64,000 nucleotides of DNA from Bacteroidales bacterium (lineage in GTDB: Bacteria > Bacteroidota > Bacteroidia > Bacteroidales > VadinHA17): NCBI GenBank assembly GCA_036759025.1, contig DAIOVL010000001.1, forward strand, positions 189,807 to 253,806. The letters run 5' to 3'. The notes beneath the pieces were generated by a model. The model made no database searches, was not told the origin of the DNA, and worked only from the letters and a program-made list of their open reading frames with translations. The position numbers were made by a program, and so were the translations under genes. Shown here in pieces: positions 13,066-25,950 of the stretch. Each line of letters begins with the position of its first letter. The first letter of the stretch is position 1.

Positions 13066-14313
13066 TTACACGAAGACCCTGCAAATATGTCTCTCGTATA
13101 TATTGTCAAAAACACATTTTGCGACAGTTTCCTCATTCGCCTCAAGCAGTTTGAAATACTCTTCCATCCTGAGGGCAGCCAGTTTGAAAGAAACATGGAC
13201 CAGCTGTCGCATATTTGAATTGTAATCCTTGTTTTCGGGTATATGTCTCAGTGAATCGACGAACTTTTTGCTGTTCCAGCCTTCAACTTCTTCCTTTGAT
13301 GGCAGCAGTGACCTGTTAATGTCAATTACGTCGGCATAGGGTGCACACAGTTCATCAATTTTCTCAAGGGCTTTGAAATATATCTCCTTAACGAATGTGA
13401 GAGCCTCTCCGCCAGCTTCTGCGAGACCGATCACTTCTTCAAGCCATGTCGTTCCGGCGGTTTTCAGGTGAAGCCCCTTGTCGTGTTTTTTAATTATTGA
13501 TTTGATGACAGGATATATTGAGAATTTGTCGGATCCTGAATGGACACTCATTTTGAGACTTGCCGGCAGTCCGAATTCCTTTACGGCATAGTCGATAACC
13601 ATCAGGTCGGCTTCGAATTCTTCTGCAAACTGCTTAATATCTCCAACATAATCTACACCTTTATTAAAGCGTCCGGAAAATTTTGGAGCTATGGTCTGGG
13701 CCGGGATGTTTTTTTCTCCCAGCATCCTGAGGATGAAGAAAAGCTCTACAGGTGTCTGTGGAAGAGGCACTTCGTCCATTGAAACTTCTGAAACGAAATT
13801 TCCCCTGCCTTTTTCTTTTTCAATTTTCGTGTAGATCTCTGATGCTTTAACAGCTGCAAACAGGTAGTTTCCGGCAATATCTCTTATCCTTTGTTCAGTA
13901 ACGTTCAGAGGTTTTTCGATTCCCGGGATATTCAAATCACCCGCGTACTTCAGTGAATCTGATACGAAAGCTTCTATTTCGCTTTCATCGGCACGTTTGC
14001 CAATGTAGGATGCGACATCGATGGTGAAGAAGTCGGAGCTGCTGATAAAGCGATCAACTGTGTCGAGATTAATATGGTCAGCATCAACAAAATAGGCTTT
14101 GCCAAAATCTGCCTGGGCAGTAACATGGTCGGCTTCCTTTCTGACATCAGAAGGTTCCGTCCCTATGATGGTATGCTCCCTGTTGGATTTATTCCATACC
14201 GGAGTTATATCAATCCCCTTTTTTCCTGCTTCGATAACCGCTTTAAGCTGGGCTGCTCCCTGATGTCCGAAACGGTCGCCCATTCCGATTGAGTATTTTC
14301 CAAGTGTTTTCAT
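13066..14313 (-). CDS. uxaE: Tagaturonate/fructuronate epimerase
   Basis: SIGMGDRF, FVDADH, EVSMDE, HSGSDKFSIYP, HLKTAGTTWLEE. Confidence 0.92.
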   Translation of the reverse strand: MKTLGKYSIGMGDRFGHQGAAQLKAVIEAGKKGIDITPVWNKSNREHTIIGTEPSDVRKEADHVTAQADFGKAYFVDADHINLDTVDRFISSSDFFTIDVASYIGKRADESEIEAFVSDSLKYAGDLNIPGIEKPLNVTEQRIRDIAGNYLFAAVKASEIYTKIEKEKGRGNFVSEVSMDEVPLPQTPVELFFILRMLGEKNIPAQTIAPKFSGRFNKGVDYVGDIKQFAEEFEADLMVIDYAVKEFGLPASLKMSVHSGSDKFSIYPVIKSIIKKHDKGLHLKTAGTTWLEEVIGLAEAGGEALTFVKEIYFKALEKIDELCAPYADVIDINRSLLPSKEEVEGWNSKKFVDSLRHIPENKDYNSNMRQLVHVSFKLAALRMEEYFKLLEANEETVAKCVFDNIYERHICRVFV

Positions 14314-14333: not shown

Positions 14334-15383
14334 TTAAAGGAAAAACTGAACATTCTCCGAAGTTACAACATCTACAGGGAGATATTCCATTTTCTCAGGT
14401 GTTTTATTCATTGAGATAAAATCGAATAGCTTCCTGACACCCTTGTATGCCTGTTCTTCAGGTCGTTGCCCTATCAGGAATCTTATTTTTCCTGTTTTAA
14501 GATATTTCACATTGTTTTCAAGCAGGTCGTATCCTATGATATTGACAGAATTGATTCCTTCCGACTCGAAATAATCAGCAATTTTGTATGATTTTGATCC
14601 TGTAACAAATATCGATCCCGTATTCTTATGCTGCCGCAGTATTCTTTTCAGTTCACGGTTAATAAAATCAGTCTGAGGATTATAGATTGCATAGCTTGTC
14701 AGCCTGTTCTGCCTGTCTTCCTGAAAGTAGCTTATGAATCCCTGTGTTCTGACATTAAGGTGATGTACATTACTTATGTTTCTGGCTATATTGATGATTA
14801 GTATCTCTTTTTCAGGTGGCGTTACCATATTGACAAGTTGTGCGGCCACTCTGCCGCTCTGGTATATGTTCTCACCGGTATAGCACAGGAAACTTGTTTC
14901 TTCGAGAAAGCCGTCGATGAAGACGAACGGGATATTACTTCGTGTAAGTTTTTCGCATAGTGTCAGTGCTTCATTTTTAAAAATGGGAGCGAGGATTACA
15001 CCATCAGGATTCAGTCTGATCAGTTCTTCCGATTTCGATTGAAAATCTCTTTCATCAAGCATGTCGAATGTCACCTGTTCCAGATTTACAGGAAAGGGAT
15101 CCAGCTCTTTCAGCGCTTTTTGAATTCCTTCCGGATGCTTCATCCAGAACGCACTTTCCTCAACAGGTTCAGGAAGGAGAGAAACCAGCCTGACTCTTTT
15201 TTTTGATTTAAGGGCTCTGGCGATGACGTTGGGAGAGTATTCCAGATCTTTGGCGATCTTTAGAATATTCTCCCTTGTCTTTTCCGCCACTTCACCCCTG
15301 TCATGAAGGACTCTGTCGACTGTCCCGATAGATACTCCGGCAAGTTCGGCAATGTCCTTTATCCTTGCTCTTTTCGGGGACAT
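14334..15383 (-). CDS. LacI-family transcriptional regulator (hexuronate regulator)
   Basis: IKDIAELAGVSIGTVDRVLH HTH, Y.PN..ARAL hinge, periplasmic-binding-like effector domain. Confidence 0.93.
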   Translation of the reverse strand: MSPKRARIKDIAELAGVSIGTVDRVLHDRGEVAEKTRENILKIAKDLEYSPNVIARALKSKKRVRLVSLLPEPVEESAFWMKHPEGIQKALKELDPFPVNLEQVTFDMLDERDFQSKSEELIRLNPDGVILAPIFKNEALTLCEKLTRSNIPFVFIDGFLEETSFLCYTGENIYQSGRVAAQLVNMVTPPEKEILIINIARNISNVHHLNVRTQGFISYFQEDRQNRLTSYAIYNPQTDFINRELKRILRQHKNTGSIFVTGSKSYKIADYFESEGINSVNIIGYDLLENNVKYLKTGKIRFLIGQRPEEQAYKGVRKLFDFISMNKTPEKMEYLPVDVVTSENVQFFL

Positions 15384-15385
15384 AA

Positions 15386-16684
15386 TCAGTCTAATACAAC
15401 CTTTTTCTCTTTAGGTGCAAAAACAGTCATAATTATCCATGCAAGAAGATAGGCACTACCTGCAATTGCAAACATTACAACGTATCCGGTCTCGATATGA
15501 CCAAGATCTTTAAAATGCTGAAGTATAGCACCTGCGATATATGAAATGAAAGCTCCGCCCAGAGCACCTGCCATTCCACCTATTCCGGTTACAGAACTAA
15601 CGGCTTTTTTAGGGAATGCATCAGAGACGGTGGTAAAGATGTTTGCCGACCATGCCTGGTGTGATGATGCTGCAAGGGCTATCAGGCACACAGCTCCCCA
15701 GTTGCCTATTGAAGGAGACTGGGCAAAAATAATAGGTACAACCAGGAGCGCGAAGATGAGCATAGTAACGCTTCTGGCTTTAAAGGGTGACATGCCTTTT
15801 TTGATCATGTAACCTGAGACCCAGCCACCACCGATACTTCCCACCGTGGTCATGGTGTATATGAATGCAAGAGGAAGTCCGAATGATTTTACATCAAGTC
15901 CTGCACCGCGAACCGTCGAAAGCCAGCCGGGTATCCAGAAAAGATAAAACCACCATATAGGATCAGTAAGACCTTTACCTATGAAGAAAAGCCATGTCTG
16001 ACGGTATTTAAGAAGTTTTAACCATGATACTTTTTCTTTTGTCTCTGCCTGCTCGTCAACATCGCTGTTAATATATTCAAGTTCTCCTGCAGATATTTTC
16101 TTGTGTTTTTCAGGTATTTCGTAAAATATAAACCATAGAATTACCCAAATGAATCCAATTGCACCGGTAATAATAAATGCTGCCTGCCATCCCCATGCCA
16201 CAACCATGGCCGGTATAGCCAGAGGAGCCACGATCGCACCAACGTTTGTTCCTGAGTTGAATATCCCGGTCGCCAAAGCTCTTTCTTTCTTCGGGAACCA
16301 TTCTGCTACCGATTTAATGGCTGCAGGGAAGTTTCCAGCCTCACTGACACCAAGAAAGCCTCTCCAGAAACCAAAGCCGAGAGCTCCTTTTGCAAGGGCA
16401 TGTCCCATGGCTGCGATACTCCATAAAATTACCGCAACACCATATCCGATCTTTGTCCCGAACTTATCGATAAGACGACCGGCAATAACCATTCCGATAC
16501 CATACAGGATCTGAAAGGCCATGATAATGTGCGCATACTGCTCTTCTCCTATTCCCAGGTCAGTCTCCAGAAGCGGTTTCAGGATCCCTATAACCTGTCG
16601 GTCGAGATAGTTCACTGTCGTGGCAAAGAAGATCAGAGCGCAGACAGTCCATCTGTAGTTACTGAATTTTTTTGTTTCTGTCAT
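15386..16684 (-). CDS. exuT: Hexuronate MFS transporter
   Basis: RWTVCALIFFATTVNYLDRQ, EAGNFPAAIK.VAEWFP.KERALATGIFNSG, TDPIWWFYLFW. Confidence 0.9.
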   Translation of the reverse strand: MTETKKFSNYRWTVCALIFFATTVNYLDRQVIGILKPLLETDLGIGEEQYAHIIMAFQILYGIGMVIAGRLIDKFGTKIGYGVAVILWSIAAMGHALAKGALGFGFWRGFLGVSEAGNFPAAIKSVAEWFPKKERALATGIFNSGTNVGAIVAPLAIPAMVVAWGWQAAFIITGAIGFIWVILWFIFYEIPEKHKKISAGELEYINSDVDEQAETKEKVSWLKLLKYRQTWLFFIGKGLTDPIWWFYLFWIPGWLSTVRGAGLDVKSFGLPLAFIYTMTTVGSIGGGWVSGYMIKKGMSPFKARSVTMLIFALLVVPIIFAQSPSIGNWGAVCLIALAASSHQAWSANIFTTVSDAFPKKAVSSVTGIGGMAGALGGAFISYIAGAILQHFKDLGHIETGYVVMFAIAGSAYLLAWIIMTVFAPKEKKVVLD

Positions 16685-16704: not shown

Positions 16705-18159
16705 TTACACATTATAAGTTGTCGATGCTGTTGTTCCTCCCCTTCCTGTCCAGTTGGTATGGAAGAATTCCCCTCTGGGCCGGTCGATACGCTCATAGGT
16801 GTGGGCACCAAAATAATCCCTTTGTGCCTGGAGAAGGTTAGCGGGAAGCCTTTCACAACGATATCCGTCAAAATATCCCAAAGCCGAGGATATTGCCGGT
16901 ACGGGTATCCCGTTTATCGTTGCGGTTGCAACCACATTTCTCCATCCCTGCTGGGCTTTTTCCACTTTGTCCCTGAAGAAAGGATCGAGAAGCAGGTTCG
17001 TTATTGAAGGGTCGTTGTCGAAGGCTTCTTTTATTTTTCCGAGGAAGGCAGATCTTATTATGCATCCTCCTCTCCACATGAGTGCAATTCCTCCATAGTT
17101 AAGATCCCATTTGTATTCTTCCGCGGCTGCTCTCATGAGAGCATATCCCTGGGCATAAGATACTATTTTGGATGCGTAAAGAGCGTCTCTTAATTCGTCG
17201 ATGAACTTTTTCCGGTCTGAAGAAAATGAAGCAACAGGTCCGTGAAGTACCTGTGATGCTTTTACCCTTTCATCTTTTACCGCCGACAGGCATCTTGAGA
17301 ATACTGCCTCACCAATAAGTGTAAGCGGAATTCCAAGATCCAGAGCTGCAACTCCCGTCCATTTGCCCGTACCTTTCTGACCTGCAGTGTCAAGTATCTT
17401 GTCGACAAGGGGAAGGCCGTCAGTATCCTTATATGCAAGTATATCCCTTGTAATTTCGATTAGATAGCTGTCGAGTTCACCCTCATTCCATTCCCTGAAG
17501 ACCAGATGCATCTCGTCAGCGCTCATGTGAAGAAGATCGCGCATTATCTGGTATGCTTCGCAGATCAGCTGCATATCTCCATATTCAATTCCGTTATGGA
17601 CCATTTTAACAAAGTGACCTGCACCATTTTCCCCAACCCAGTCGCAACAGGGAGAGCCGTCTTCCACTTTCGCCGCAATAGCCTGGAATATGGGTTTCAC
17701 ATGGGGCCATGCAGCTTTTGATCCTCCGGGCATGATCGAAGGCCCCAGCAGCGCTCCTTCCTCACCTCCCGATACTCCTGTTCCGATATACAGAAGTCCT
17801 TTACTCTCAACATAGGCAGTCCTTCTGTTGGTGTCAGGGAAATGAGTGTTTCCCCCGTCAATGATTATATCACCCGGCTCGAGATGAGGGATCAGGGTTT
17901 CAATCATATCGTCAACAGCACGGCCCGCCTTGACCATTATCATGATCTTCCTCGGTCTTTCAAGCGCTTTCACAAGCTCTTCAATTGAATGAGTACCGGT
18001 TATTTTCTTTCCATTTGCCCTCCCGGCAAGGAAATCATCGACTTTTTGTGTCGTACGGTTATAGACAGCTACATGGAATCCCTTGCTCTCCATGTTCAGA
18101 ACAAGATTCTCCCCCATAACTGCCAGACCGATAAGTCCGATGTCAGCTAATTTGCTCAT
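16705..18159 (-). CDS. gnd: 6-phosphogluconate dehydrogenase (decarboxylating, NADP)
   Basis: GLIGLAVMG, GVSGGEEGA, GHFVKMVHNGIEYG, QKGTGKW, WRGGCIIRS, AQRDYFGAH. Confidence 0.97.
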   Translation of the reverse strand: MSKLADIGLIGLAVMGENLVLNMESKGFHVAVYNRTTQKVDDFLAGRANGKKITGTHSIEELVKALERPRKIMIMVKAGRAVDDMIETLIPHLEPGDIIIDGGNTHFPDTNRRTAYVESKGLLYIGTGVSGGEEGALLGPSIMPGGSKAAWPHVKPIFQAIAAKVEDGSPCCDWVGENGAGHFVKMVHNGIEYGDMQLICEAYQIMRDLLHMSADEMHLVFREWNEGELDSYLIEITRDILAYKDTDGLPLVDKILDTAGQKGTGKWTGVAALDLGIPLTLIGEAVFSRCLSAVKDERVKASQVLHGPVASFSSDRKKFIDELRDALYASKIVSYAQGYALMRAAAEEYKWDLNYGGIALMWRGGCIIRSAFLGKIKEAFDNDPSITNLLLDPFFRDKVEKAQQGWRNVVATATINGIPVPAISSALGYFDGYRCERLPANLLQAQRDYFGAHTYERIDRPRGEFFHTNWTGRGGTTASTTYNV

Positions 18160-18186
18160 AATTATAGTTATATTAGTTAATCAATC

Positions 18187-18210
18187 TAAAACCTTAAACC
18201 TTTAAACCTA
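18187..18210 (+). repeat. Octamer tandem repeat TAAACCT(T/A) x3
   Basis: TAAAACCT TAAACCTT TAAACCTA between gnd and the oxidoreductase. Confidence 0.7.
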
Positions 18211-19185
18211 TTTATAATATTCTTTAACCATCTCCTCCAGAACCCGGCTTGTTCTCGCAGCTGTAATGCCGGTACTAACTGCAGGGATCTTTTTAGTCAG
18301 TGCCTCTACCACCTGACCGATAAGACAGATCTGAACATGTTCGGGCCGTTCATTTATGTACTCCTGTTTACCTGCTTCATTCTCAACTATTATCGGATCG
18401 AAACTGAAGCAGGAGAACCTGATGTAACCTTTATCGCCTATTATCTCAATTGAATCCCTTCCGGCTGACTGGTGAGCGTTAAAGCACCAGATTCCGGTTC
18501 CGGTGACATTATTGTCGAACATAAAGCCGGCCGAAACATAATCTTCAGCTTTGTACCAGGCACCCTGGTTAAGAGCATACGATTTAACCTCTTTAACAGG
18601 ACCAAACAAAAAATCCAGATAATCGAGCTGGTGTGAAGCAAGATCAAAAAAATGGCCTCCACCCGCGATTGCCGGGTCAACCCGCCATGAAAGCCTTCCT
18701 GATATTTCATCTGGTGAAGGAGCTTTAAAAAGCTGAAGATGAACCGATCGTACAGATCCGATCTTCCCTGAACTGATCATTTCCCTTACCATAACAAAAC
18801 CTGGCAATGCTCTGCGGTAGTATGCTACAAATACCGGGACCTGTTTTCTTTCGGCTGCTTCATTTATTTCCAGACACTCTTCATAATTCAAAGCCATTGG
18901 CTTCTCAATGTATACAGGTTTGCCTGCATCTATCGACATGAGAGCGTATGTTGCATGACTGGAGGGAGGAGTGGCCACGTATACAGCATTTACTCCGGGA
19001 TCGTTGATGAGCTCTGAAGCATCGGAATAGAACCTTGGCACATTATGTCTTTTCGCATAATCTTCAGCCAGCCCTGCATCTCTTCTCATAACGGCGGTGA
19101 GACGCGAGTCCTTTACTTTGTTAAAAGCAGGTCCGCTCTTGACCTCGGTCACATTGCCACATCCTATGATACCCCAGCTAATCAT
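18208..19185 (-). CDS. Gfo/Idh/MocA-family oxidoreductase, cytoplasmic (start 19185, ATGA overlap with upstream gene)
   Basis: WGIIGCG, YVATPP.SH, EKP, GGG...DLASHQLD; start codon overlaps the TGA of 19182..20456. Confidence 0.88.
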   Translation of the reverse strand: MISWGIIGCGNVTEVKSGPAFNKVKDSRLTAVMRRDAGLAEDYAKRHNVPRFYSDASELINDPGVNAVYVATPPSSHATYALMSIDAGKPVYIEKPMALNYEECLEINEAAERKQVPVFVAYYRRALPGFVMVREMISSGKIGSVRSVHLQLFKAPSPDEISGRLSWRVDPAIAGGGHFFDLASHQLDYLDFLFGPVKEVKSYALNQGAWYKAEDYVSAGFMFDNNVTGTGIWCFNAHQSAGRDSIEIIGDKGYIRFSCFSFDPIIVENEAGKQEYINERPEHVQICLIGQVVEALTKKIPAVSTGITAARTSRVLEEMVKEYYK

Positions 19186-20456
19186 TTTTCCAGACGCTCT
19201 CGTGAACTCCACAATCCTATGGCGGGATTTGAAATATAATAGATATCCTCACCGTCGGGCATGGTGTTGAAGCCATCCCTGAGTTTTTCCGGGTTGTATC
19301 TTGCCGTCATCTCAGATAGGTCTCCGTAGATGAAGTTAACAGATTCTATTTCCTCTCTGGTGAGATGCCCGGGGCAGTAGGTAATTGAAAACCTGCCTTC
19401 AGAACTGCCGTGAATAAGATGGGCTGCAGCGCTAAGGTTCTCCTCCAGTTCTTTATTTCCCCTTAGTGCAGCCATTGTTGCAGGTGTTCCCCTGTATCCG
19501 TATTTCCGTATAAGCCTGTCTATCTCCTTATCTTCTCCAAATTCCTTAAGGCCCGGAGCTATTACTATCAATTCCCCGTTATCAGCCATGGCCATTCTGG
19601 TCCGGTATATACTTTTATTGCCAAGCCAGGTTGACTTGAATTCAGAAGGATCGAGGTAAACGACAGCTTTCTTCAAAGGTTCTTCGAGAACCGTGAAGTT
19701 GACTTTCAGGGAAAGATCGGCAGCCAGGTTGAATACATTTTCATCATCACCGATATAAAGGCCCCTGATCACAAGTTTGCCTGAATTGTCACGGCCTATA
19801 ACCGTGTGGACGTACACTACAGGCAGATGAGGAATAAAATTCTTTGAAGCATAGTTCAGAAGTCTTCTCACAGGTGTGTCTGCCTTGCCCATCATCCTTT
19901 CCATTCCGAAAACAGCACCCACAAAATGACTTTTATTGATACCTTCCGGTCCTCCGGTTCCGACGAAAAGGTTCTTGTTATAATTTGCCATGCCGATAAC
20001 CTCATGAGGCACCACCTGTCCGACTGATAGTATAAGATCATGTCCGCCGTTGATTACCAGTCTGTTCAGCTGCGCAGGCCATGAATAGTCTATGGCTCCT
20101 CCGGTAACTTCATGAACGTATTCTCCTGGTATTGTGCCTACTGTCACAACATCATTCCTCCAGTCATGGACCCTGAACAATTCGGGCGGCACATCCCTGT
20201 ACATCTCACCGATCTCGCCGGCTGTCATTGCCACATGAGTTCCCAATGCAGGAAGTATGTCCTTAAGGCTTTCCCTGTAATATTTGTATATCAGGGTTGT
20301 AATCTCACCCGCCCGTGAATGAAACCTCGTAAAATCAGGGGGCACAACCAGGACATTTTTCCTGGGTCCCAGCTTTTCGAGAGCCGAATAAAGCCCCTGT
20401 TGAAGATCTTCCGGACTTATAACCGTATCTGGTGAACCAGCGGAAAAATATATCAT
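19182..20456 (-). CDS. gntE: LarA (lactate racemase) superfamily protein, probable D-mannonate/D-gluconate 2-epimerase
   Basis: PPDFTR, ALGTH, VVPHEV.G.ANY.K, INKSH LarA-type motifs; sits between uxuB and gnd. Confidence 0.75.
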   Translation of the reverse strand: MIYFSAGSPDTVISPEDLQQGLYSALEKLGPRKNVLVVPPDFTRFHSRAGEITTLIYKYYRESLKDILPALGTHVAMTAGEIGEMYRDVPPELFRVHDWRNDVVTVGTIPGEYVHEVTGGAIDYSWPAQLNRLVINGGHDLILSVGQVVPHEVIGMANYNKNLFVGTGGPEGINKSHFVGAVFGMERMMGKADTPVRRLLNYASKNFIPHLPVVYVHTVIGRDNSGKLVIRGLYIGDDENVFNLAADLSLKVNFTVLEEPLKKAVVYLDPSEFKSTWLGNKSIYRTRMAMADNGELIVIAPGLKEFGEDKEIDRLIRKYGYRGTPATMAALRGNKELEENLSAAAHLIHGSSEGRFSITYCPGHLTREEIESVNFIYGDLSEMTARYNPEKLRDGFNTMPDGEDIYYISNPAIGLWSSRERLEK

Positions 20457-20543: not shown

Positions 20544-21380
20544 CTACACCCCGCTGTAGGCACTGAATCCTCCGTCGACAGGTATTATTACTCCTGTAAC
20601 GGCTTTAGAGAGGTCGGATGCCAGGTAAAGCAACGTTCCGGTCATTTCCTCAGGTATGCAGTAACGTTCCATGGGGGTTCCGTTTATTATTTTCTTACCC
20701 CTGGGCGTCATTTCTCCTGTCTCTTCATTGATAAGGAGGAAACGGTTCTGGTTTGTAAGCAGGAAACCGGGAGCTATGGCATTTACTCTGATACCCACTT
20801 TGGCAAAATGAACTGCAAGCCATTGTGTAAAATTGTTGACAGCAGATTTGGCTGCTGAATAAGCAGGAATCTTGGTAAGGGGCCTGTATGAATTCATAGA
20901 GGAAATGTTGATTATTGCACCTGACTTTTTATCTGTCATATCAGTTGCAAAAACCATTGAAGGAAGAAGAGTCCCTTTGAAATTCAGGTCGAAAACCTTA
21001 TCAAAGCCTTCTATTTTTAGTCCGAAGAAGGTGTCCTCAGGATTTTCGTTCCCCTCCATCTTTTCAACCTTTGTTGTTGCCGCGGGAGAGTTGCCTCCGG
21101 CACCATTGACGAGGATGTCGATCGTGCCAAGCCTTTCATGAATTTGTTTTAAGGCAGATTCAAGAGAGGCCTTATCCAGAACACTGGCGGAAACCCCAAT
21201 GGATTTAGTTTTGAATTCTTCCTCTATCCCGGCAGCTACTTTATCGGCAGCTTCCTGGTTAAGATCCAGAATCACCGTCCTGACTCCGGCAGCCGCCAGC
21301 GATCTGGCCATTGTGGAACATATAACACCAGCTCCTCCGGTCACGACGGCTATTTTGTCCTTAAGATTCAGTTCATTCAT
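20544..21380 (-). CDS. uxuB: SDR D-mannonate oxidoreductase / fructuronate reductase
   Basis: TGGAGVIC, NGAGGNSP.ATT, YSAAK, NFTQWLAVH, NAIAPGF; follows uxaC. Confidence 0.85.
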   Translation of the reverse strand: MNELNLKDKIAVVTGGAGVICSTMARSLAAAGVRTVILDLNQEAADKVAAGIEEEFKTKSIGVSASVLDKASLESALKQIHERLGTIDILVNGAGGNSPAATTKVEKMEGNENPEDTFFGLKIEGFDKVFDLNFKGTLLPSMVFATDMTDKKSGAIINISSMNSYRPLTKIPAYSAAKSAVNNFTQWLAVHFAKVGIRVNAIAPGFLLTNQNRFLLINEETGEMTPRGKKIINGTPMERYCIPEEMTGTLLYLASDLSKAVTGVIIPVDGGFSAYSGV

Positions 21381-21401: not shown

Positions 21402-22799
21402 TTAGAAACCAAATTGTTCTTTCGCATTCTTGTATGATATACCTTCTATTATAGGTCGGAGAAGTTCCTCCTCTTCAGGTATAAGACCTTTTTCGACTTC
21501 GGTACCCACGAAATTGCATACTATCCGCCTGAAATATTCGTGCCGCGGATAGGAGAGGAAGCTTCTAGAGTCGGTTACCATACCGATGAATCTTCTCATC
21601 AGACCGAATGAAGACAGATCGCGGATATGTTTTTCCATACCGGTTTTCTGATCAAGGAACCACCATGCAGCACCATACTGGACTTTAACCGGGATAGTTC
21701 CGTCGTTGAAATTACCTGCCATCGTTAGCATCATTTCATTGTCGGCGGGATTGAGGTTATACAGAATTGTACGTGCAAGCTGGTCTGTTTCATCCAGGCT
21801 GCTGAGAAACCTCGACATTTTAAGAGCATCCTGCGGCACGCCAATGGAGTCCCACCCGGTATCGGGTCCCATTTTTCTGAACATGCGGAGGCTGTTGTTT
21901 CTCATGGCTCCGACATGGAACTGCTGGGTCCACCCTCTCTTGTGGTTCATCCTGCAGAGTTCTGTCATAACTGCTGTCCTGTATTTTTCGGTTTCTTCTT
22001 CCGACAGCGTTTCTCCCTTTAAAAGCTTTATGAATGCATTTTCAGCATCGGCAGTGGTGAACGGAGCGTAATAGAAACGATCAAGACCATGATCGGACGC
22101 TTTTGTCCCCATCCCGTTAAAAAATTCATGCCTGTGGTCGAGCACTTCTATAAGGGTGGAGAAGCTTTTTATTTCTGTACCGGCCGATTCTCCCAGTTTT
22201 TTAATGTAGGCATTGAATTTTGCAGGGTCATCAGTCTTGACAACATTGTCGGGCCTCCAGGTAGGGAGGATAAGAATACTGAAGTTACCCTTTAATTTCT
22301 GGTGGTATTCGAGGGTGTCGGCAGGGTCGTCGGTGGTACAGACCACCTCAACATTCATTCTGCTGAGCAGAGATCTTATTGCAAAATCATCTGTACGCAG
22401 CATTTCACTGGCTTTAGTGTAAATGGCTGAAGCTGTCGATGGTGAAAGAAGCTCGTTAATATTAAAATACCTTGCCAGTTCAAGGTGGGTCCAGTGATAC
22501 AGGGGATTGCCCACAGCAAAAGGAACTGTTTCAGCCCATTTTGCAAACTTCTCAGGGTCGGAGGCGTTGCCCGTGCAGTATTTCTCATCAACACCATTGG
22601 TCCTCATGGCTCTCCATTTGTAGTGATCGCCTTCAAGCCATGCCTGTGTCAGGTTTTCAAACCTGCGGTTTTCATATATCATCGAAGGTGACAGGTGACA
22701 ATGAAAATCAATTATCGGTTGATTTTCTGCATATTGATGATAAAGTCTTTGTGCTGTTTTATTCTCCAGCATAAAATCATCATGAATGAAAGGTTTCAT
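21402..22799 (-). CDS. uxaC: Uronate isomerase
   Basis: PIIDFHCHL, WLEGDHYKWRAMR, GNPLYHWTHLEL, CTTDDP, GAAWWF.DQ, GMVTDSRSFLSYPRHEYFRR. Confidence 0.97.
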   Translation of the reverse strand: MKPFIHDDFMLENKTAQRLYHQYAENQPIIDFHCHLSPSMIYENRRFENLTQAWLEGDHYKWRAMRTNGVDEKYCTGNASDPEKFAKWAETVPFAVGNPLYHWTHLELARYFNINELLSPSTASAIYTKASEMLRTDDFAIRSLLSRMNVEVVCTTDDPADTLEYHQKLKGNFSILILPTWRPDNVVKTDDPAKFNAYIKKLGESAGTEIKSFSTLIEVLDHRHEFFNGMGTKASDHGLDRFYYAPFTTADAENAFIKLLKGETLSEEETEKYRTAVMTELCRMNHKRGWTQQFHVGAMRNNSLRMFRKMGPDTGWDSIGVPQDALKMSRFLSSLDETDQLARTILYNLNPADNEMMLTMAGNFNDGTIPVKVQYGAAWWFLDQKTGMEKHIRDLSSFGLMRRFIGMVTDSRSFLSYPRHEYFRRIVCNFVGTEVEKGLIPEEEELLRPIIEGISYKNAKEQFGF

Positions 22800-22854
22800 A
22801 TAATTAGTTTTAAATTATTGATTCGGTAATAGACTTCTAAAAATAGAAAAAAAA

Positions 22855-22870
22855 TCGTTAACGATAACGA
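22855..22870. promoter_or_regulatory. Candidate LacI-family operator TCGTTAACGATAACGA
   Basis: 16-bp near-perfect palindrome with central CG in the uxaC/kduI divergent region; a LacI gene is in the operon. Confidence 0.6.
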
Positions 22871-23055: not shown

Positions 23056-23892
23056 ATGAAAATTGAAATAAGGTACGCAGCACATCCGATGGATGTTAAA
23101 AATTATGACACCGGTAAATTAAGAAAAGAGTTTTTAATCGAGAAAATCTTTGAAGAGGACCAGATCCTGCTTGTTTATTCCATGTACGACAGGTACATCG
23201 TAGGCGGGGCCATGCCCGTGAAGCAGACTCTGAAACTTGAGAGTGCTGACGATCTTAAAATGCCTAACTTCCTCGACAGAAGAGAAATGGGGATCATTAA
23301 TGTCGGAGGCCCTGCAATTGTATCCACCAAAGAAAAAACCTTCAATCTTGGCCATAAGGAGGCTCTATATCTTGGAAAGGGAACGACAGATGTTACATTT
23401 AAATCGGAAGACAGCGGAAATCCGGCAAAGTTATATATCAACTCTGCACCCGCCCACCATACATATCCCTCAAAACAAATAACTCTTAAGGATGCAGAAG
23501 TGATCATGCTTGGAAGCCCGGAAACATCAAATCACCGAAGGCTGAATAAACTTCTTGTAAACAGTATAGTCGAAACCTGCCAGCTGCAGATGGGAATGAC
23601 AGAACTACAGACGGGCAGTGTATGGAACACAATGCCGGTACATACGCATAACAGAAGGATGGAAGCATATTTCTATTTCGAGGTGCCTGAAAAACAGGCT
23701 GTATGTCATTTTATGGGTGATCCCGATGAAACACGCCACCTGTGGATGACAAATGAACAGGCTGTTCTTTCTCCTTCCTGGAGCATTCATAGTGCAGCAG
23801 GAACTTCAAACTACACCTTTATCTGGGGTATGGCCGGAGAAAACCTCGACTATGGCGACATGGATGTCAGGCATCCGGATACGCTGAAGTAA
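23056..23892 (+). CDS. kduI: 5-dehydro-4-deoxy-D-glucuronate isomerase
   Basis: LR.EFLI, FLDRREMG..NVGG, CQLQMG.T.L..GSVWNTMP.HTH.RRME.YFYF, SPSWSIH, WGMAGEN. Confidence 0.97.
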   Translation: MKIEIRYAAHPMDVKNYDTGKLRKEFLIEKIFEEDQILLVYSMYDRYIVGGAMPVKQTLKLESADDLKMPNFLDRREMGIINVGGPAIVSTKEKTFNLGHKEALYLGKGTTDVTFKSEDSGNPAKLYINSAPAHHTYPSKQITLKDAEVIMLGSPETSNHRRLNKLLVNSIVETCQLQMGMTELQTGSVWNTMPVHTHNRRMEAYFYFEVPEKQAVCHFMGDPDETRHLWMTNEQAVLSPSWSIHSAAGTSNYTFIWGMAGENLDYGDMDVRHPDTLK

Positions 23893-24083
23893 TAGTGAAA
23901 CAAACATCAGTGCACAGGAAAATTTCAGGAGGAGGCTGTGCAGGAATCAAAAAGACAAACCGCAAAGAATGCAAAGCAGTAAATGCCATGGCCTGTGATC
24001 TTGAGTATCTTCCTCATTATCATTTCATTCAGCGGATATTAAATGACACATCTTCCTGATAATATAAATATAAAATATTTAAT

Positions 24084-24878
24084 ATGAACAATTTATTTGA
24101 TCTTAAAGGGAAAGTAGCACTAGTTACAGGCGGAACACACGGCATCGGACTCGCAATAGGAATCACTCTCGGCAAAGCCGGCGCAAAAGTATGCGTGAAC
24201 GATATCATGGATGAAAAACTTGACATCTGCAGGGAGGAATTCTCAAAGGAAGGCCTTGATGTTTACACTCTAAAATTCAATGTTACTGATGAGGCGGATG
24301 TTGACAAAAGTATAACTGAGATTGAAAGAAATGTAGGCCCCGTAGATATTCTCATCAATAATGCCGGGATAATAAAACGAATCCCCATTCTGAACATGAG
24401 TATTGATGACTACAAACAGGTTATTGATGTTGATCTGGTGGCACCCCTGATCGTATCCAAACGTGTTGCTCCGGGGATGATAGAAAAAAGAAGCGGAAAG
24501 ATTATTAACATGTGTTCCATGATGAGTGTTTACGGACGGAACACTGTCTCGGCTTACGCATCAGCCAAGGGAGGACTGAAGTTACTCACCGCGAATATGA
24601 CATGTGAATGGGCAAAATACAATATTCAGATCAACGGTATCGGTCCGGGATATATAGCCACATCGCAGACTGCCCCTATTCGTGAGAATGGCCATCCTTT
24701 CAACGACCTTGTGATGACCCGCACCCCGGCCGGACGATGGGGCGAACCTCAGGATGTGGCGAATGCTGCACTATTTCTTGCCTCTGAAGCCAGTAACTTC
24801 GTCAACGGACATATCCTTTACGTCGACGGTGGCATTCTTGCCAACTTCGGCTATGTAAAAGGAGAAAATGACTTATAA
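24084..24878 (+). CDS. kduD: SDR 2-dehydro-3-deoxy-D-gluconate 5-dehydrogenase / gluconate 5-dehydrogenase
   Basis: TGGTHGIG, NNAGIIKR, YASAKGG, NGIGPGY; follows kduI. Confidence 0.82.
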   Translation: MNNLFDLKGKVALVTGGTHGIGLAIGITLGKAGAKVCVNDIMDEKLDICREEFSKEGLDVYTLKFNVTDEADVDKSITEIERNVGPVDILINNAGIIKRIPILNMSIDDYKQVIDVDLVAPLIVSKRVAPGMIEKRSGKIINMCSMMSVYGRNTVSAYASAKGGLKLLTANMTCEWAKYNIQINGIGPGYIATSQTAPIRENGHPFNDLVMTRTPAGRWGEPQDVANAALFLASEASNFVNGHILYVDGGILANFGYVKGENDL

Positions 24879-24907
24879 CCCTTAAACCCTTAAACCTTTA
24901 AACCCTC
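24876..24907 (+). repeat. Tandem repeat TAAACC(C/T)T x4
   Basis: TAACCCT TAAACCCT TAAACCTT TAAAACCCT fills the kduD-kdgK spacer. Confidence 0.75.
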
Positions 24908-24912
24908 TTCCA

Positions 24913-25950
24913 ATGTCAAAAAGAATTGTAACCTTCGGCGAGATCATGCTCCGGCTCGCCACACCACTCCATAAGCGTTTTTCACAGGCTGATTCCTTCT
25001 GCGCTTCCTTTGGAGGAGGAGAAGCCAATGTGGCGGTTTCACTGGCAAACTTCGGAATGGAAGCCGATTTTGTGACACGTCTTCCTGACAATGACCTTGG
25101 AAGATCAGTGATCATGGATCTCAGGAAGCATAATGTCGGAACCGGTCACATCCTGAAAGGAGGTGAGCGTCTGGGTATTTATTTTCTGGAAACCGGTTCT
25201 GTATCGCGTCCCAGTAAGGTTGTCTATGACCGGAGTCATTCGTCAATTTCGGAAATTATGCCCGGAATGGTCGACTGGGAGAAGGTTTTCGAAGGAGCCA
25301 CATGGTTTCACTGGACAGGTATTACACCCGCCATTTCAGAGGGTGCAGCCAAAACATGCCTGGAGGCAATACAAATTGCAAAAAAGAAAGGACTTACCGT
25401 TTCATGCGATCTGAATTACAGGAAGAACCTATGGAAGTGGGGAGCTGCTGCCGGAGACGTTATGCCTGAAATGGTTGAATACTGTGATGTGATCCTTGGA
25501 AATGAGGAAGATGCAGAGAAAGTTTTCGGGATAAAACCTGAAAAGGCAGATGTTTCGGCAGGAAAGGTTGAGAGCGCCGAATTTGAATCGGTATGTATAA
25601 AGCTAAAGGAGAGATTTCCTCAGGCAGGTAAGATAATCATTACACTTCGCGGATCGATCAGCGCCGACCACAATACATGGTCGGGGATATTGTATAACGG
25701 GGAAAAATTCTTCCGGGCACCGGTTTACCAGATAACTCACATAGTAGACAGGGTAGGTGGGGGAGATTCCTTTATGGGAGGACTTATCTACGGATTACTG
25801 GAATATGGGGACGATGACAGGAAAGCACTCGATTTTGCCGTCGCTGCATCGTGTCTCAAGCACACTATCCATGGCGACTTTAATCTCGTTAACGTAGCGG
25901 AGGTTGAGCAACTTATGAAGGGAGATGCCTCAGGAAGAGTAATAAGATAG
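24913..25950 (+). CDS. kdgK: 2-dehydro-3-deoxygluconokinase (PfkB family)
   Basis: TFGEIMLRL, GGGEANVA, DLNYRKNLW, DRVGGGDSF. Confidence 0.92.
   Translation: MSKRIVTFGEIMLRLATPLHKRFSQADSFCASFGGGEANVAVSLANFGMEADFVTRLPDNDLGRSVIMDLRKHNVGTGHILKGGERLGIYFLETGSVSRPSKVVYDRSHSSISEIMPGMVDWEKVFEGATWFHWTGITPAISEGAAKTCLEAIQIAKKKGLTVSCDLNYRKNLWKWGAAAGDVMPEMVEYCDVILGNEEDAEKVFGIKPEKADVSAGKVESAEFESVCIKLKERFPQAGKIIITLRGSISADHNTWSGILYNGEKFFRAPVYQITHIVDRVGGGDSFMGGLIYGLLEYGDDDRKALDFAVAASCLKHTIHGDFNLVNVAEVEQLMKGDASGRVIR

Follow-up and report, generated by a model that had tools for sequence, protein, structure and literature searches.

How does 6-phosphogluconate reach its dehydrogenase in a hexuronate operon that encodes no gluconokinase, and what is the role of an oxidoreductase gene lodged between the epimerase and dehydrogenase genes of that operon? 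Both questions are raised by a stretch of 64,000 nucleotides from a Bacteroidales bacterium of the VadinHA17 lineage (assembly GCA_036759025.1, contig DAIOVL010000001.1, positions 189,807 to 253,806 of the forward strand), which we call the window and whose own numbering is used below unless a contig is named. On the minus strand of the window, the gene of a group-18 homologue of LarA (LarAH18), a putative hexonate epimerase, is followed by a gene of the Gfo/Idh/MocA family and then by gnd. A first, sequence-only reading of this locus had proposed that either the neighbouring KdgK or an unlinked kinase supplies 6-phosphogluconate, or that the oxidoreductase carries out an undescribed step. Our analysis shows that the pathway hole is real in the genome as assembled. 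It is most plausibly filled by KinB, a non-canonical kinase encoded elsewhere in the genome, as co-occurrence and synteny suggest, and the oxidoreductase appears to be a lineage-specific, conserved accessory of the pathway and not an obligatory step.

The source genome comprises 3.69 Mb in 73 contigs and is 95% complete. A search for SKI-type gluconokinases (GntK/IdnK, TIGR01313) gave no match in it, and SKI-type GntK was found in none of the 58 genomes that carry a LarA homologue and gnd (25 from a sample of 401 genomes of the phylum, this one included, and 33 reached via orthologues of the oxidoreductase); the same search did detect the family in Escherichia coli, Bacillus subtilis and other controls. 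The six FGGY kinases of the genome are two GlpK, FucK, a XylB-like protein, AraB and one unassigned member, the best of which scores 159 bits on the FGGY gluconokinase family (TIGR01314), against a cut-off of 648, and no FGGY gluconokinase exceeded the cut-off in any of the 58 module genomes. The genome search for GntK, FGGY and IdnK kinases that the sequence-only reading had called for thus extends its finding of no gluconokinase from the cluster to the whole genome, as far as canonical types are concerned.

UxuA and Zwf gave no match in this genome with E. coli queries or hidden Markov model searches, the E. coli UxaA and UxaB queries gave none either, and gnd is present as a single copy (one tblastn match). 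The operon route is therefore the sole outlet that we see for mannonate, and no other supply of substrate for Gnd is visible either. Zwf is missing in 12 of the 25 sampled LarAH18 genomes, this one among them, and Gnd in these genomes must therefore be fed via the LarAH18 route. Among the close relatives that carry the oxidoreductase embedded in the cluster, 30 of 33 have Zwf; its absence here could reflect an assembly gap or a true loss of the oxidative entry into the pentose-phosphate pathway.

Which kinase, then, could serve the operon? At the 24 other LarAH18 loci of the phylum sample, the conserved core consists of uxuB, a kinase, LarAH18 and gnd. We extracted the kinases occupying this slot and typed part of them; they include two unrelated PfkB subfamilies, KinA and KinB. 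In this genome KinB is a PfkB kinase of 359 residues, encoded directly downstream of pgi on another contig (C4:18587-19666). Its identity to the kinase that immediately precedes LarAH18 at loci L044, L050 and L060 is 76%, and its orthologues adjoining LarAH18 in other genomes show 75-77% identity. Orthologues of KinB occur in 7 of the 401 phylum genomes, and all seven have LarAH18 (background 25/401; Fisher p = 1.5e-9); in six of the seven, that is in all except this one, KinB lies next to LarAH18. Furthermore, 27 of the 33 genomes that carry the oxidoreductase inside the cluster have KinB (73-96% identity).

In some genomes the kinase slot beside the LarA homologue is occupied by a gene resembling pyrophosphate-dependent phosphofructokinase (PPi-PFK; 426 residues, NF010675 383 bits) together with a 296-residue HAD protein that falls in no NCBIfam family (loci L057, L058, L061, L073, L076, L078, L091, L102 and L113). 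This pair is found in the cluster of five of the six embedded-oxidoreductase genomes without KinB. Searched genome-wide, none of the 58 genomes has both KinB, present in 34, and the PFK-like gene, present in 9 (p = 1.2e-4), which is a typical pattern of non-orthologous displacement. By analogy with fructose-6-phosphate, C1 of fructuronate might be the site that the PFK-like protein phosphorylates.

KinB reaches none of the NCBIfam cut-offs for 2-keto-3-deoxygluconate (KDG) kinases (best scores 164 bits, cut-off 700, and 104 bits, cut-off 440) and is about 26-30% identical to the KdgK of this genome, so that by sequence it belongs to a separate, unnamed subfamily of the PfkB fold, probably derived from KdgK. 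We predict it to be the pathway kinase because of its exclusive occurrence with LarAH18, its mutual exclusion with the PFK-like gene and its sub-threshold scores on the KdgK models. Of the two kinase sources that had been proposed, an unlinked enzyme therefore fits best, in the form of KinB with its orthologues beside LarAH18, and KdgK becomes the less favoured candidate. In this lineage the KinB gene would have moved to a conserved spot after pgi, outside the operator of the LacI-family regulator. The pgi-KinB pairing (C4:17184-19666 here) recurs with a gap of 20-160 nt in 12 of 15 relatives examined as well as in this genome (loci L172-L184). 6-phosphogluconate is an inhibitor of Pgi, and in view of this the pairing may not be accidental.

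The position of the oxidoreductase gene is recurrent too. Its start codon overlaps the stop codon of LarAH18, positions 19182-19185 reading TCAT on the plus strand and ATGA on the minus strand: the ATG occupies 19185-19183 and the TGA of the 424-residue LarA homologue 19184-19182. The open reading frame (ORF) listing allows the oxidoreductase frame to be extended to a GTG at 19212, but 19185 is the true start since the orthologues and the database copy, all of 325-329 residues with the N-terminus MI(S/N)WGIIGCG, begin at that ATG. A spacer of 48 nt separates the gene from gnd, and the coupled arrangement described from the sequence is thereby confirmed. This spacer (18160-18207) is full of TAAACC(T/C)T-like repeats.

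Homologues of the oxidoreductase (62-84% identity) lie between LarAH18 and gnd in all 30 of the species-level Bacteroidales relatives found. The LarAH18-oxidoreductase junctions of these 30 comprise 11 overlaps of 4 nt, 2 overlaps of 1 nt, 11 gaps of 6-24 nt and 6 gaps of 39-188 nt, and five metagenomic contigs share the 4-nt overlap. Seven genomes of the Prolixibacteraceae, among them that of Prolixibacter bellariivorans, have the genes in the order uxuB, KinB, LarAH18, oxidoreductase (52-55% identity), pdxB and gnd. A cluster of the Caldilineaceae (Chloroflexota) is headed by an orthologue of the oxidoreductase, followed by uxaC, uxaE, uxuB, a HAD gene, a LarA homologue of another group (174 bits on NF052594), gnd and a PFK-like gene. 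Since the position recurs across lineages, the linkage is real and probably functional, and the epimerase-oxidoreductase-gnd triad, whose conservation had been left to be checked, is indeed kept within the lineage. A canonical gluconokinase under the same operator, combined with no conserved linkage of the oxidoreductase to the epimerase, is thus not what we found. A tree built to see if the embedded copies had been recruited repeatedly requires a minimum of four changes, yet its well-supported branches permit a single origin.

Conserved position is not the same as necessity. An orthologue of the oxidoreductase is missing from 15 of the 24 other LarAH18 genomes, and in seven of the nine that have one the gene is unlinked. 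The family is found in 78 of the 401 phylum genomes, almost always as a single copy, and also in genomes of Flavobacterium, the Bacillus group, Spirochaetota and Chloroflexota, mostly as a lone gene. Embedded and free-standing copies have 72 near-invariant residues in common, one C-terminal position alone being clade-specific, and the same chemistry is therefore expected of both. Because of the missing orthologues, the broad distribution as a lone gene and the lack of clade-specific changes in the active site, we regard the enzyme as a probable accessory. The earlier proposal of a required step from gluconate to keto-gluconate is made unlikely by the 15 LarAH18-gnd genomes that have no orthologue.

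The features of the locus are as follows.

21402-22799, minus strand: uxaC, which heads the operon and encodes glucuronate/galacturonate isomerase (667 bits on Pfam UxaC and 617 bits on NCBIfam NF002794).
20544-21380, minus strand: uxuB, fructuronate reductase (D-mannonate oxidoreductase) of the short-chain dehydrogenase/reductase (SDR) type (NCBIfam NF006132 389 bits, cut-off 281).
19182-20456, minus strand: LarAH18, group-18 LarA homologue of 424 residues, putative hexonate 2-epimerase with nickel-pincer cofactor (NF052594).
18208-19185, minus strand: Gfo/Idh/MocA oxidoreductase of 325 residues, NADP-type by motif, resembling 1,5-anhydrofructose reductase (PF01408, PF22725, PF02894).
16705-18159, minus strand: gnd, decarboxylating NADP-dependent 6-phosphogluconate dehydrogenase (TIGR00873 788 bits).
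15386-16684, minus strand: major facilitator superfamily transporter of the hexuronate/aldonate (ExuT/DgoT-like) type (MFS_1; TIGR00893 235 bits, under its cut-off).
14334-15383, minus strand: LacI-family regulator inside the operon (Pfam LacI and Peripla_BP_4).
13066-14313, minus strand: uxaE, tagaturonate/fructuronate epimerase (Pfam PF16257 188 bits).
22854-22865, no strand: perfect palindrome ATCGTTAACGAT, candidate LacI operator, in the divergent intergenic region between uxaC and kduI.
23056-23892, plus strand: kduI (NF002091 431 bits).
24084-24878, plus strand: kduD (SDR match).
24913-25950, plus strand: kdgK (PfkB match).

The genes expected of a Thermotoga-type route, namely those of UxaC, UxaE, a fructuronate reductase, a LarA-type epimerase and Gnd, are thus all clustered, and a GntK gluconokinase was not found in the cluster. 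LarAH18 (19182-20456) is distinct from UxaE (13066-14313), the second epimerase of the operon. The divergent kduI-kduD-kdgK genes (23056-25950) form a separate branch from unsaturated uronate to KDG; the position of KdgK is kept in relatives (orthologues of 84-92% identity), and it is indeed the sole kinase near the cluster, as had been stated. Searched over the whole genome, ATCGTTAACGAT occurs as an exact copy at the uxaC/kduI site only. A scan for promoters and terminators, which does not cover Bacteroidetes promoters, gave nothing above chance. On another contig (C2:167142-175470), two GntP-family permeases flank an ORF of 438 residues that by sequence resembles glycerate 2-kinase, near a homologue of the 2-keto-3-deoxy-6-phosphogluconate aldolase Eda (31% identical to that of E. 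coli). At a distance of about 1 kb from eda there is a version of the palindrome with one mismatch, ATCGTTAACCAT, and the regulon may extend to this GntP/eda region.

The epimerase belongs to the family 'nickel-dependent putative hexonate epimerase' (NF052594, 658 bits with a cut-off of 500), and it aligns without gaps, at 63% identity, to ACP_2683, a group-18 member in Desguin et al. 2020. All the motifs of ACP_2683 are kept (PPDxTR, here PPDFTR, GTH, PHEV, NYNK and KSH), and with them the cofactor-binding or catalytic Asp/Arg and His, the His-Glu-Val loop, the tethering Lys and the nickel-ligand His. The gene is single-copy and encodes the only LarA homologue of the genome. The cofactor genes larC, larE and larB form a compact operon distant from it (C2:25916-28635): LarC scores 493 bits on PF01969 at C2:25925-27052, and the two ORFs that follow (267 and 249 residues) are LarE- and LarB-like, as judged from their N-terminal sequences. 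To the earlier description of an epimerase upstream of the oxidoreductase we add its membership of the nickel-pincer LarA superfamily, which had gone unrecognized. Hexonate epimerization by group-18 LarA homologues has so far been hypothesized only (Desguin et al. 2020, PMC7583248), and in Supplementary Table S1 of the same study the group-18 neighbours include 6-phosphogluconate dehydrogenase (6PGDH) and ribokinase-family kinases, and no Gfo/Idh/MocA gene.

We propose that the operon encodes a hexuronate to pentose-phosphate route of the Thermotoga GntE type, with LarAH18, KinB and an accessory oxidoreductase, a reading that we consider evenly balanced between right and wrong. UxaC, helped by UxaE in the case of galacturonate, would produce fructuronate, which the SDR UxuB would reduce to D-mannonate. 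LarAH18 and the kinase would then convert mannonate to 6-phosphogluconate in either of two orders: epimerization could come first, with KinB acting on gluconate as in Thermotoga, or KinB could act first on mannonate, with epimerization afterwards as in extracts of Lactobacillus suebicus. Gnd would finally yield ribulose-5-phosphate. That KinB is a D-mannonate 6-kinase, LarAH18 a 6-phospho-D-mannonate 2-epimerase and the oxidoreductase an NADPH-dependent reductase of keto-hexonates or keto-uronates, together making up the route of Valk et al. 2020, is a combination we hold to be quite unlikely. If it were true, LarAH18 would be the first enzyme with a nickel-pincer cofactor to use a phosphorylated substrate, and uronic acid fermentation by this route would be wholly cofactor-neutral.

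In most of the other LarAH18 clusters, LarAH18 immediately adjoins gnd. At loci L044, L045, L049, L060, L061, L100, L102, L104, L106 and L111, however, a gene for a PdxB-type 4-phosphoerythronate dehydrogenase separates gnd from the LarA homologue or from the oxidoreductase. We examined whether it could be a specialized paralogue; it passes the cut-off of the PdxB equivalog (NF001309, 455 bits against 434). 4-phosphoerythronate inhibits 6PGDH, and PdxB may serve in these clusters to protect Gnd and not as a pathway step. The pdxB of the genome studied here is unlinked to the operon (C2, about 199.5-200.5 kb) and contains a run of N.

What reaction could the accessory enzyme carry out? Its membership of the Gfo/Idh/MocA family is supported by PF01408 (93 bits), PF22725 (92 bits) and PF02894 (66 bits). 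An AlphaFold2 model (pLDDT 95.6) gave as best Foldseek matches 2glx (TM 0.87), glucose-fructose oxidoreductase (GFOR) and 4koa, at TM 0.85-0.87 and 21-23% identity. K95 of the EKP motif, D181 and H185 do not vary among 30 orthologues, and an alignment places them opposite the catalytic residues of 4koa. In the same alignment, the sequence AVMRRD follows beta-2, with invariant M33-R34-R35 and no acidic residue; NAD-dependent members of the family have an acidic residue at this place. 1,5-anhydrofructose reductase and GFOR are NADP(H) enzymes acting at a ring C1 or C2 carbonyl. The oxidoreductase is predicted to be cytoplasmic, NADP-type by motif and a relative of 1,5-anhydrofructose reductase. 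A literature search found no characterized member of its family. UxuB, on the other hand, has an Asp after beta-2 (VILDLN), which under the classical SDR rule goes with NAD(H) and suggests that it uses this cofactor. With an NADH-type UxuB and an NADP-type Gnd, the route would consume NADH and make NADPH.

Against this background we suggest, tentatively and as something less probable than not, that the oxidoreductase is an NADPH-consuming reductase of a keto-sugar acid, for example fructuronate or another keto-hexonate. It would then re-oxidize the NADPH made by Gnd and render the fermentation of uronates cofactor-neutral. As an alternative, it could be a salvage enzyme for a 2-keto intermediate. 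Three other candidate roles were tried and rejected: a substitute for Zwf, suggested by its place beside gnd, its NADP type and the missing Zwf of this genome (of the 33 genomes in which the oxidoreductase is embedded, 30 have a normal Zwf, and the LarAH18 genomes show no anticorrelation), an analogue of UxaB feeding altronate dehydratase (there is no UxaA in the genome) and an orthologue of E. coli YgjR, a Gfo/Idh/MocA protein encoded a few genes from uxaCA (23% identity only). The only other informative context for the oxidoreductase comes from a Spirochaetales metagenome-assembled genome (L132:3813-7074), where an orthologue of 51% identity stands in a tight operon between a DUF362 gene and an Ldh_2 gene (malate/L-lactate dehydrogenase family 2), next to a URO-D-like gene, an SDR gene and, by sequence, an apparent IclR-type regulator.

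Several observations weigh against the proposed route and the role it gives to the oxidoreductase. The oxidoreductase family is present in many genomes that have no LarA homologue, and it is only modestly more frequent among those with LarAH18 (10 of 25, compared with 68 of 376 others). A survey of the genes around 28 free-standing orthologues revealed no recurrent partner. The NADPH-balancing role is conjectural, a fructuronate reductase is already encoded in the operon, and the NADP preference of the oxidoreductase and the NAD preference of UxuB are both read from motifs. The kinase assignment is built on co-occurrence and synteny. Moreover, no operator-like palindrome ATCGTTAACGAT was found upstream of pgi-KinB; KinB lies outside the regulon here and could serve some other pgi-linked purpose. 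Finally, since the genome is 95% complete and lacks the Zwf of nearly all its relatives, some of the absences may be assembly gaps.

The oxidoreductase could simply be a passenger, a housekeeping enzyme inserted into the operon by chance and without a role in uronate metabolism. Its wide distribution in the phylum and in Bacillus, Spirochaetota and Chloroflexota as a single, free-standing gene with no conserved neighbours fits this idea, as do the identical invariant residues everywhere. We nevertheless judge it unlikely: the position is kept across the 30 species down to 62% identity and, at 52-55%, by a second family as well, an orthologue has joined the independently arranged Chloroflexota hexuronate cluster with a different group of LarA homologue, and the family is threefold enriched in LarAH18 genomes (p = 0.012).

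A less probable role still is that of an NADP+-dependent aldose 1-dehydrogenase, which would convert, for example, D-mannose or D-glucose to the aldonolactone and hence to mannonate or gluconate. Among the nearest structural relatives (GFOR, aldose-aldose oxidoreductase and L-glucose dehydrogenase) the reaction met most often is the oxidation of a pyranose at C1, the cofactor motif is of the NADP type, and the product would supply LarAH18, KinB and Gnd. However, the operon contains neither a lactonase nor a hexose transporter, Bacteroidales usually phosphorylate hexoses directly, and a second NADPH-making step would worsen the cofactor imbalance.

An obligatory but undescribed step is, in our view, improbable to a similar degree. 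In one version, gluconate or mannonate would be oxidized to a keto-gluconate, phosphorylated by a KdgK-like kinase and reduced to 6-phosphogluconate, in a manner resembling the KguK/KguD route of Pseudomonas. In at least 37 genomes the gene sits tightly between LarAH18 and gnd, its start frequently overlapping the preceding stop, which invites such a step, and a 2-keto acid would suit the KDG-kinase-like KinB and KinA. Furthermore, the PdxB-type 2-hydroxyacid dehydrogenase of Prolixibacteraceae adjoins the oxidoreductase, and the Caldilineaceae cluster has recruited an orthologue too. But 15 of the 24 other genomes with LarAH18, kinase and gnd have no orthologue anywhere, the epimerase gene lies directly beside gnd in most such clusters, and the active site is unchanged between embedded and free-standing copies. 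We know of no oxidation of an open-chain 2-hydroxy acid in this oxidoreductase family, and the detour would be needless given the epimerase.

With regard to the kinase, we give little credence to the idea that KdgK (24913-25950) also phosphorylates gluconate or mannonate and that KinB has another, pgi-connected job. KDG and the hexonates have the same configuration at C4-C6, KdgK and the operon have their divergent operator region in common, and KinB is paired with pgi and lacks the operator. Against this, KinB occurs exclusively in LarAH18 genomes and is adjacent to LarAH18 in other lineages, L045 and others carry a true KdgK orthologue with kduID plus a separate kinase beside LarAH18, and KinB and the in-cluster PFK-like kinase exclude one another. 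That a canonical gluconokinase hides in the roughly 5% of the genome left unassembled, as its 95% completeness, its 73 contigs and the missing Zwf that relatives possess might suggest, is very improbable, because none of the 58 module genomes, complete single-contig ones included, has an SKI or FGGY GntK over the cut-off.

If KinB, LarAH18 and the accessory oxidoreductase do act as proposed, the breakdown of pectin and glucuronan by uncultured Bacteroidales of sediments, peat and digesters may run largely via this route and not via the textbook KDG pathway. The kinase slot would be filled by at least three non-orthologous kinases, from two PfkB subfamilies and a PPi-PFK-like protein, and the routine mis-annotation of KinB as a KDG kinase would be corrected. 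Parts for a redox-neutral conversion of pectin-rich waste would follow. The study yields a kinase candidate with strong comparative support and, for a highly conserved Gfo/Idh/MocA family present in about one fifth of Bacteroidota genomes, evidence of a conserved accessory and not of the missing step.

How does this operon compare with known systems? The oxidoreductase resembles 1,5-anhydro-D-fructose reductase (2glx, 4koa) and the GFOR of Zymomonas (1ofg, 1evj) in the Lys of the EKP motif, the Asp...His pair and the basic residues after beta-2, and it is, like the former, cytoplasmic by prediction and of about 330 residues. It differs from them in sequence (21-23% identity only) and in genomic context, and GFOR is located in the periplasm and binds its cofactor tightly. 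KinB resembles KdgK (2afb, 1v19) in its PfkB fold, KdgK structures being its best sequence matches in the PDB (E = 1e-33), and would likewise transfer phosphate to the CH2OH end of a sugar acid with six carbons; unlike KdgK, it falls under the KDG-kinase cut-offs and co-occurs with LarAH18, not with kduI and kduD.

In the galacturonate pathway of L. suebicus, the activities of a mannonate kinase, a 6-phosphomannonate 2-epimerase and 6PGDH were shown in extracts (Valk et al. 2020, PMC6978723), the one report of a mannonate kinase or 6-phosphomannonate that our literature search found. The same authors raised the cofactor mismatch between UxuB and 6PGDH. The start and end points of the route and this question of cofactor matching are common to both systems, and KinB and LarAH18 are candidates for activities of the L. 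suebicus type because those have no assigned genes. Unlike here, the kinases suspected in L. suebicus are GntK homologues, which this genome lacks, and no Gfo/Idh/MocA enzyme is implicated there.

The closest parallel is the hexuronate route of Thermotoga maritima, which, as proposed by Rodionova et al. 2012 in the terms in which PMC7583248 and PMC6978723 cite it, consists of UxaC, UxaE, fructuronate reductase, GntE (= LarAH20), GntK and Gnd; the activity of GntE was demonstrated by Desguin et al. 2020 (PMC7583248). In both organisms uronate would pass via fructuronate to D-mannonate, and C2 epimerization by a nickel-pincer LarA enzyme would lead to 6-phosphogluconate and Gnd; UxaE is present and the nickel-pincer cofactor genes are found in this genome too. 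The operon described here is new with respect to the Thermotoga route in three ways. Its putative epimerase belongs to group 18 of the LarA homologues rather than to LarAH20, the canonical GntK is missing and would be replaced by a candidate encoded elsewhere, a PfkB protein derived from KdgK, and a Gfo/Idh/MocA gene, the presumed accessory, is inserted between the epimerase gene and gnd.

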